This document shows, piece by piece, positions 8,486 through 8,681 of a stretch of 11,196 nt of DNA. The translations under genes and the position numbers were made by a program. Location of the stretch: the IMG/VR virus record IMGVR_UViG_2541047814_000003, positions 1 through 11,196 of that record, one strand, 5' to 3'. Each line of letters opens with the position of its first letter. The first letter of the stretch is position 1. Below the pieces are notes generated by a model, which was given only the letters and a program-made list of their open reading frames with translations, searched no databases and had not been told where the DNA came from. Source of the DNA: a virus. Its lineage: Duplodnaviria; Heunggongvirae; Uroviricota; Caudoviricetes.

Positions 8486-8579
8486 AGCTGCCTCGATAAT
8501 CTTGCTATCGTTGGTGGTTAGAAGCCCCGTTACTGCTCCTACAGTGCGGGGTTTCGTCGTTTCTGCACCTTGTATTAAC

Positions 8580-8660
8580 AAGGTGTAAGTAACTTTATTT
8601 ATAGGTGGCTTACATGTCAATGCTTTTATGTAAGACTTTTTATGTGTATATTGTCTTACA
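8580..8660. promoter_or_regulatory. Divergent control region with alternating TGTAAG / CTTACA hexamers (operator-like) and a candidate leftward promoter
   Basis: TGTAAG at 8584-8589 and 8629-8634, CTTACA at 8609-8614 and 8654-8659, spaced 20-25 bp; minus-strand TTGACA (plus coords 8615-8620) with a 17-bp spacer to TAAAGT (8592-8597). Confidence 0.45.
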
Positions 8661-8681
8661 CTTTCATTGAGAGGATTACAG

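Follow-up and report, generated by a model that had tools for sequence, protein, structure and literature searches.

The 11,196-nucleotide window analysed here (IMG/VR record IMGVR_UViG_2541047814_000003, positions 1 to 11,196) is Escherichia coli DNA, and its positions 8200-9300 are 100% identical to strain 1296KP. It carries an island of about 10.5 kb located between clpS and cspD, and similar DNA is present in 1,604 of 5,426 complete E. coli genomes. The gene content and gene order are those of a Gram-negative phage-inducible chromosomal island (PICI), and on this annotation the window is a PICI of the EcCICFT073 type, with helper dependence predicted from its genes. Here we describe its 196-bp regulatory interval (8486-8681), in which four copies of the word TGTAAG bracket two divergent promoters, and we propose that the protein encoded beside it, a predicted ribbon-helix-helix (RHH) regulator, would switch the replication operon of the island.

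Regulatory interval

The interval is the gap between an Icd-like gene of 67 residues (8282-8485, minus strand) and a regulator gene of 101 residues that belongs to the YlcI/YnfO family (8682-8987, plus strand). The Icd-like gene, assigned by NCBIfam NF033153 with 71 bits against a cut-off of 25 and annotated in the same way in 1296KP, opens a leftward operon that continues with a hypothetical gene of 106 residues, a DUF4222/RgdR-family gene of 99 residues (7663-7962, minus strand) and a D5/P4-type primase gene of 610 residues (5849-7681, minus strand). A preliminary description of the window had placed this region between the replication operon and a small regulator gene, and both the profile annotation and the 1296KP genome bear this out.

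The same description had pointed to TGTAAG/CTTACA hexamers in alternating orientation, and exact copies indeed start at 8584 (plus), 8609 (minus), 8629 (plus) and 8655 (minus). The spacing had been given as 20-25 bp; measured from start to start it is 25, 20 and 26 bp, which nearly agrees, the last gap excepted. Site 1 (8584-8589, plus strand, TGTAAG, extended GGTGTAAGTAAC) coincides with the predicted +1 of the leftward promoter, and site 2 (8609-8614, minus strand, CTTACA) lies in the spacer of that promoter and abuts its -35 box. Site 3 (8629-8634, plus strand, TGTAAG, extended ATGTAAGAC) lies in the spacer of the rightward promoter and site 4 (8655-8660, minus strand, CTTACA, extended GTCTTACAC) at its predicted +1; the two extend to a perfect 8-bp inverted repeat, TGTAAGAC/GTCTTACA. 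A further perfect inverted repeat, CACCTTGT-TAAT-ACAAGGTG (8566-8585, 8-bp arms and a 4-nt loop), is flush with site 1. This repeat could be a 5'-terminal hairpin with which the leftward mRNA begins, or an additional binding site for a protein; many relatives carry a counterpart palindrome that finishes with AGGTG, and none is found, for example, in the E. coli loci of class B described below.

Four of the eight copies of the hexamer in the window fall inside 77 bp. The count for the whole window (8, with 4.7 expected) is unremarkable, and when the 196 bp were shuffled 20,000 times with their dinucleotide composition preserved, 248 of the shuffles contained a non-trivial hexamer family in at least four copies (p ~0.012). 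Judged on the sequence by itself, the repeat is no more than moderately unusual, and the case for its function rests on comparison.

The sites bracket two back-to-back sigma-70-type promoters that point outward. The leftward one, proposed earlier as TTGACA-17-TAAAGT, was recovered by a promoter scanner with 10 of 12 matches; its -35 box TTGACA lies at 8620-8615 and its -10 box TAAAGT, 17 nt away, at 8597-8592 (both minus strand). The rightward promoter has the -10 box TATATT (8647-8652, plus strand), and the weak box TTTTAT (8624-8629, plus strand), a T-tract, probably serves as its -35 box, judging from the 17-nt spacing. The layout of the sites is mirror-symmetric, with sites 2 and 1 at the spacer and +1 of the leftward promoter and sites 3 and 4 at the spacer and +1 of the rightward one. 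Such a layout is typical of promoter occlusion, and because the sites occupy both the spacer and the +1 of each promoter, the bound protein would be expected to repress the leftward operon and to autoregulate its own gene.

Comparison of related loci

We compared the interval across 104 related loci, of which 13 came from other Enterobacterales genomes, 11 from an exact-protein look-up and 80 from IMG/VR, and to which EcCICFT073 was added; the 105 loci counted with the window, together with EcCICFT073, represent 45 distinct combinations. A Serratia rubidaea locus with a distant homologue that lacks the layout (L012) and a partial match (L016) were left out. De novo counting of 7-mers with one mismatch was too noisy, being dominated by the conserved -10 motif TGTGTAT, and a position-anchored comparison was used instead.

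A common scaffold is kept in all loci, consisting of GGTG at site 1, TAnnnT (the leftward -10 box), GTCAA (the complement of the leftward -35 box), the T-tract, GTGTATAnTG (with the rightward -10 box), a site ending in CAC, the Shine-Dalgarno (SD) sequence and ATG. The word at the four site positions varies between loci and forms 10 classes, each with a distinct regulator N-terminus, the co-varying stretch of the regulator being its N-terminal ~18-26 residues. Regulators of class A read SQS[LV]TAR[IV]P (for instance SLTARIP) and go with TGTAAG, those of class B read SQLTTVRVP and go with GTGTGTTTC, those of class C read SQMTTIRVP and go with GTGAGATAT / GTGATATAC, and those of class D read S[KR]QISIRIP and go with GTGTGATTT. 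The corresponding pairs are SQ[LIV]KN[IV]RIP and GTGTGTATTT in class E, SQMKNIRFP and GTGTGCATAC in class F, SQQLNARFP and GGTATTCA in class G, SQALAARVP and GTGTAAAC in class H, STQIASRVP and GGTGCTAACCACC in class I, and SQALKARVP and GGTGTGGCCCAC in class J, the class of EcCICFT073. The class B word is identical in E. coli and in Xenorhabdus/Photorhabdus. The orientation of the sites is + - + - in classes A, B and D, + + - - in E and F, and that of direct repeats in I and J. The 8-mer at site 4, used as a query, matched a further 2.07 times on average within its own operator, 2.03 times in other loci that share its class and 0.48 times in those of other classes.

The hexamers had been described as overlapping candidate promoters of both divergent units, and the boxes of these promoters are conserved in each of the 10 specificity classes. 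At least 85% conservation was found in all classes for the CAA of the GTCAA motif and for the TGTA...T of GTGTATAnTG, and the TTTT run is likewise conserved in all of them. In the classes read, TAnnnT stands ~17 nt from TTGAC at the equivalent -10 position, the spacing having been counted for A, B and D. In every class conservation is highest at sites 1 and 2, whereas a degenerate copy stands at site 3 in B and J and at site 4 in G, which suggests that the replication operon is the main target and that autoregulation is weaker.

Three other candidates for the determinant of specificity were considered and rejected. Icd-like proteins that are ~97% identical (for example that of locus L079) accompany both class A and class B operators, and class B operators occur with at least three very different first genes. 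Identical C-terminal 62-mers of AlpA are common to classes A and B, C and D, and B and C. The C-terminal half of the regulator itself is near-identical across A, B, C, D and G.

The comparison of the window with L079 delimits the exchanged segment. Identity is ~100% up to about 8520, falls to 33-67% over most of 8522-8760, where two 30-bp windows have 77%, and is 77-90% thereafter; the swapped cassette at ~8522-8760 thus comprises the operators and codons 1-26. In the comparison with class C, divergence stops near 8736, at codon 18. Because the block ends at codons 18-26, the exchanged unit is the operators with the codons of the N-arm and beta-strand, and no other coding sequence lies inside it. 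Since all copies of the word change together and the cassette holds no other coding sequence, linkage alone is insufficient to account for the co-variation. On this comparative evidence the four repeats are most likely binding sites of the 101-residue protein. The earlier suggestion that this protein controls the region is therefore strengthened as regards the sites, which co-vary with its N-terminus and with no other nearby protein; its repressive effect would follow from the promoter geometry.

Regulator protein

The 101-residue protein matches the YlcI/YnfO family (NCBIfam NF041551) over residues 9-50 with 71.4 bits against a cut-off of 30 (E = 4.7e-20), and RefSeq gives this annotation to identical and related proteins too. 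The predicted structure has an RHH-type domain at residues 1-55 (strand ~11-17, helices 19-28 and 35-54), a Gly/Ser linker at 52-58 and a long helix at 56-100. Its N-terminus is modelled as a beta-strand, helix, helix fold of ~45 residues, so that the RHH-like character ascribed to the protein beforehand is reproduced by the model. The top structural matches are ORF56 of pRN1, which is the best, and Arc, and the domain also resembles the antitoxins ParD, MazE9 and Rv0298.

Sequence comparison gave little. No Pfam family reached threshold with the protein, PSK_trans_fac being marginal (best E = 0.0024, in 15 of 22 homologues), and there was no significant match to a curated RHH family. Alignment to Arc/Mnt with hhalign reached 5% probability over 21 columns that cover the strand and the start of helix A only, and a PDB sequence search matched no RHH protein. 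As the support at the sequence level is weak, we call the fold RHH-like on structural grounds only, from a single-chain prediction. A C-terminal helix-hairpin-helix (HhH), suggested by a profile-versus-PDB match to the HhH of Hef (E = 0.0084), was rejected in favour of the one continuous helix 56-100 in the AF2 model. The N-arm and beta-strand are the parts with which RHH proteins such as Arc, MetJ and CopG read DNA, and Mnt of P22 likewise has an RHH domain followed by a C-terminal helix.

A tblastn search with the protein found no match in 50,697 records of bona fide phages. In the DLP12 prophage of K-12 (L110, 6252-6835) the namesake ylcI encodes 64 residues with the RHH-like motif RNIRFPNQMIEQ... 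and diverges from the small-terminase gene nohD; to judge by its location, the gap between the two is apparently the cos region. A distant homologue of the regulator is thus present in helper-type lambdoid prophages.

Candidate antisense RNA

The plus strand at 8485-8566 holds a candidate antisense RNA of ~80 nt opposite the ribosome-binding site of the Icd-like gene. Its putative promoter is an extended -10 box, TGgTATAAT (8470-8478, plus strand), within the first codons of the Icd-like gene. The RNA would fold into stem-loop 1 (8487-8518), with an anti-SD CCUC at 8491-8494, and stem-loop 2, a predicted terminator (8521-8555) with a U-rich tail to ~8566, all on the plus strand. It is perfectly complementary to the AUG, SD and 5' untranslated region of the Icd-like mRNA. 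All 43 unique anchored sequences have TAnnnT ~40 nt upstream of the GGTTAGA/hairpin anchor, and this -10 position is constant though the start codon of the Icd-like gene shifts by several nucleotides between families.

The window copy has a minimum free energy of -34.5 kcal/mol (z = -4.4). In the alignment the two hairpins comprise 21 consensus pairs with 96.4% of cells paired, and 11 pairs have compensatory changes on both sides; none of 500 shuffles reached the observed level, and slid controls were ~40% paired. G.U pairs number 53 on the plus strand and 0 on the minus strand, the 12 nt after the stem contain on average 6.0 T on the plus strand versus 1.7 on the minus strand, and the plus strand folds more stably in 40 of 40 unique sequences (mean -34.8 versus -22.2 kcal/mol). 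Because the G.U pairs and the U-tail are strand-specific, the structure is read as a plus-strand RNA, and the alternative of a leader or attenuator of the leftward mRNA at 8521-8555 was rejected as the primary reading on the same grounds. A search of the whole window against Rfam at E<=1 returned two chance matches, MIR1508 and sR1, neither of them within 8486-8681. The segment 8485-8566 is probably a conserved, structured cis-antisense RNA that helps the switch, a candidate whose transcription is predicted.

In relatives whose first leftward gene is a long Phage_ASH gene, Rfam detects isrK and C4 antisense RNA inside that gene, as in locus L019 (3280-3465, minus strand; 81 and 76 bits). Such islands therefore combine the proposed RHH switch with an immunity RNA of the P4 type.

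Other features of the island

The regulator gene is followed on the same strand by an open reading frame (ORF) for a very basic protein of 59 residues (9045-9224, phrog_21027, with a KRRRK motif). This ORF is present in EcCICFT073 and some relatives and absent from others. An intrinsic terminator, GGCGACCG-CCCC-CGGTCGCC then TTTGTTATAT (9292-9320, plus strand), ends the rightward unit and has its U-tail on the plus strand only. The regulator gene and the 59-residue ORF run counter to the otherwise minus-strand gene flow, in which int occupies 9958-11196 and an AlpA-family gene 9339-9548 (both minus strand).

Beyond the primase gene lie genes for a single-stranded DNA-binding (SSB)-like protein and then for capsid, decoration and small-terminase (TerS) proteins. 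The SSB-like ORF (4897-5319, minus strand) has an in-frame stop after codon 80; its copy in 1296KP is intact and differs at 142 of 423 nt, by which the window is mosaic relative to 1296KP outside 8200-9300. Between the stop of the primase gene (5849) and an ORF of 81 residues (5561), the segment 5600-5845 holds at least 10 copies of GGTGAACAG(T)/ACTGTTCACC in both orientations, which are probably the iterons of the replication origin of the island. These inverted repeats give rise, as an artefact, to a weak Rfam match to MIR1508 at 5675-5764. The segments 4423-4454 and 4557-4617, which lie upstream of the capsid gene, contain a 15-nt palindrome with perfect arms, AATCATAACTGGATG/CATCCAGTTATGATT, and a pair of overlapping hairpins that resemble terminators, AAAAGCCCGATAAG/CTTATCGGGCTTTT, and may be a control region of the late operon or a terminator. 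At 291-430, close to the left end of the island, four copies of TGTTAA/TTAACA fall within ~100 bp. The DUF4222 protein (7663-7962) is 36% identical to C1493 (RgdR) of CFT073 and is without the RGD motif; C1493 is a regulator of LEE (enterocyte effacement locus) type III secretion and of motility (PMC3378721).

Proposed switch and alternative explanations

We propose, with a probability of roughly 70%, that the interval is a protein-operator switch of the replication operon with an antisense RNA as a second layer, for which we infer the binding, the sign of repression, the oligomerisation and the expression of the RNA. The leftward promoter would drive the operon of Icd-like, DUF4222/RgdR-family and primase genes, and the rightward promoter the 101-residue YlcI/YnfO-family gene together with the 59-residue ORF. 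Each promoter would be flanked by two sites of ~9 bp with the core TGTAAG, one beside the -35 box in the spacer and one at +1, which the N-terminal RHH domain, through its N-arm and beta-strand, would read. The paired sites lie 25-26 bp apart centre to centre, and since this is too long for contact between adjacent RHH dimers, the long C-terminal helix probably joins the dimers so that the two sites would be bound together. Once occupied, the sites would shut out RNA polymerase, so that the replication operon would be repressed and the repressor gene would be under its own control. After transcription, the cis-encoded RNA of ~80 nt would pair with the SD/AUG of the Icd-like mRNA. The regulator of EcCICFT073 (59 residues) is without the C-terminal helix and its sites are near-palindromic direct repeats, each of which may bind one dimer independently.

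Several points weigh against this proposal. A spacing of 20-26 bp is unusual for RHH operators, and the antisense promoter lies in coding sequence and is without a recognisable -35 box. The operators adjoin the N-terminal codons, so co-inheritance alone would give some co-variation. The operators of classes B and C differ strongly, and the predicted DNA-facing strand residues (L/M12, T14, R16) differ only subtly, so that determinants in the N-arm or outside the strand must contribute. In enterohaemorrhagic E. coli, deletion of the operon's RgdR homologue has a phenotype without induction (PMC3378721), from which it may follow that repression is leaky or partial, or that internal promoters exist. 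Control of EcCICFT073 has been assigned to the activator AlpA, with unidirectional transcription (PMC6092414). More speculatively, AlpA-activated transcription from alpA might read leftward, antisense through the repressor gene, into the replication operon. Such read-through is possible because the terminator at 9292-9320 has its U-tail on the plus strand only, and it would reconcile the published reporter data with the switch.

Among the other explanations, it is unlikely, though not far-fetched, that the 101-residue RHH protein binds the same sites as a copy-control factor, a Cro-like post-induction shut-off or an activator, with quiescence resulting from a lack of AlpA. The best structural match, ORF56 of pRN1, a plasmid copy-control RHH protein encoded beside a primase gene, speaks for copy control, and CopG of pMV158, acting together with an antisense RNA, offers a parallel. 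AlpA is moreover the necessary, helper-induced activator in the published EcCICFT073 model (PMC6092414), and the uninduced activity of the RgdR homologue (PMC3378721) fits as well. Sites in the spacer and at +1 of a near-consensus promoter are, however, the geometry of repression and not of activation, and copy control and maintenance repression are compatible with each other. We regard it as improbable that another factor (AlpA, the Icd-like protein, the 59-residue basic protein, or a host or helper-phage protein) binds the repeats and that the co-variation is linkage. The operators and the N-terminal codons lie within 100 bp, so that a recombined block carries both, and PHROGs labels Icd-like families 'transcriptional repressor'; yet the operator class can differ where the Icd-like or AlpA proteins are identical or nearly so, the 59-residue ORF is missing at several loci that retain the sites, no host or helper factor explains 10 word classes within one species, and the swapped block contains the coding sequence of no other protein.

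It seems still less probable that the 101-residue protein and the 59-residue ORF are, respectively, antitoxin and toxin of a type II toxin-antitoxin pair, and that the repeats are the autoregulatory operator of the former. The fold likeness to ParD, MazE9 and Rv0298, the weak PSK_trans_fac matches and the small co-oriented ORF downstream would suit such a pair. Against it, the 59-residue ORF has no Pfam or NCBIfam match and belongs to a PHROG of unknown function only, not to a toxin family; it is not called in L017 and L021, which keep the switch; and two of the four sites are on the promoter of the divergent replication operon. A known toxin gene that lies adjacent to the regulator gene and always co-occurs with it was not found. 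That the hexamers are chance repeats in an AT-rich promoter region has next to no likelihood left: the within-sequence significance of only ~0.012 and the unremarkable window count would allow it, but the same four positions recur across 10 classes with copies changing in concert, and the comparative data thereby refute chance.

Relation to known systems and significance

The immI region of P22 comprises Mnt, Arc and the sar RNA, and the arrangement of RHH repressors, divergent promoters and an antisense RNA there resembles that of the island. There is no significant sequence homology to Arc/Mnt, so the likeness is one of fold and architecture only. The island has four sites at 20-26-bp spacing in place of the compact 17-21-bp operators of P22, its controlled operon encodes replication and not an antirepressor, and the element is a satellite and not a phage. 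RHH copy control with an antisense RNA or beside a primase gene links the island to pMV158 (CopG/RNAII) and pRN1 (ORF56 and the ORF904 primase). In those plasmids the RHH gene is co-transcribed with rep, whereas the regulator gene of the island is divergent, its product carries a long C-terminal helix in addition, and the element is integrated in the chromosome.

Stl, the repressor of Staphylococcus aureus pathogenicity islands (SaPIs), which are Gram-positive PICIs, is not known to be an RHH protein, and no helper-encoded antirepressor is known for the system of the island. The SaPI Stl/Rpr arrangement is similar in that a repressor gene diverges from the excision-replication operon, with int on the repressor side (layout in PMC6092414); in the island, by contrast, int and alpA point the same way as the replication operon, and the small repressor unit has been inserted in the other direction. 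The immunity RNAs P4 CI, P1 c4 and isrK are likewise small, structured and situated in an operon leader, and their operon starts with an Icd/Ash-type gene and finishes with a primase gene. The candidate RNA of the island differs from these in lying on the opposite strand, as a true antisense RNA, and in its two-hairpin structure; the C4/CI/isrK covariance models (RF01695, RF01394) had no match in the window at E<=1, and they do match L019.

EcCICFT073 has the same gene order and content, and in it a YlcI/YnfO protein of 59 residues diverges from the Icd-like gene across a 199-bp gap with GGTGTGGCCCAC sites. For Gram-negative PICIs (GN-PICIs) the global repressor has been described as unclear, transcription as unidirectional and AlpA as the activator (PMC6092414). 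The gene, the sites or a repressor are not mentioned in the GN-PICI papers PMC6092414, PMC6739421, PMC10111431 and PMC11773190, and later papers on EcCICFT073, HE-PICIs, EcCIMP1 and Enterobacter satellites treat Icd or YlcI/YnfO at most as accessory genes. In the openly searchable literature, queried for YlcI/YnfO, PICI RHH, EcCICFT073, OI-51 and Icd-like antisense RNA, we found no description of the module, the protein-operator classes or the RNA.

Tentatively, and at somewhat less than even odds, the module may be the missing master repressor and immunity system of EcCICFT073-type PICIs, with at least 10 interchangeable specificities carried in cassettes of ~240 bp and an uncatalogued antisense small RNA (sRNA). 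It is a concrete candidate for what keeps these islands quiescent and throttles their replication, and would fill the published gap of a repressor. If the proposal is true, helper induction would work by defeating the module, either through an antirepressor or through AlpA-driven read-through, and co-resident satellites would fall into incompatibility or immunity groups according to their specificity class. Among the genes of the operon under the proposed control are RgdR-family regulators of type III secretion (PMC3378721). The matched pairs of protein and operator, 10 in number, would offer a natural series of specificities in which to study how RHH proteins recognise DNA and could be a source of orthogonal repressor-operator parts, and the antisense RNA, if real, would be a new sRNA family in enterobacterial satellites.
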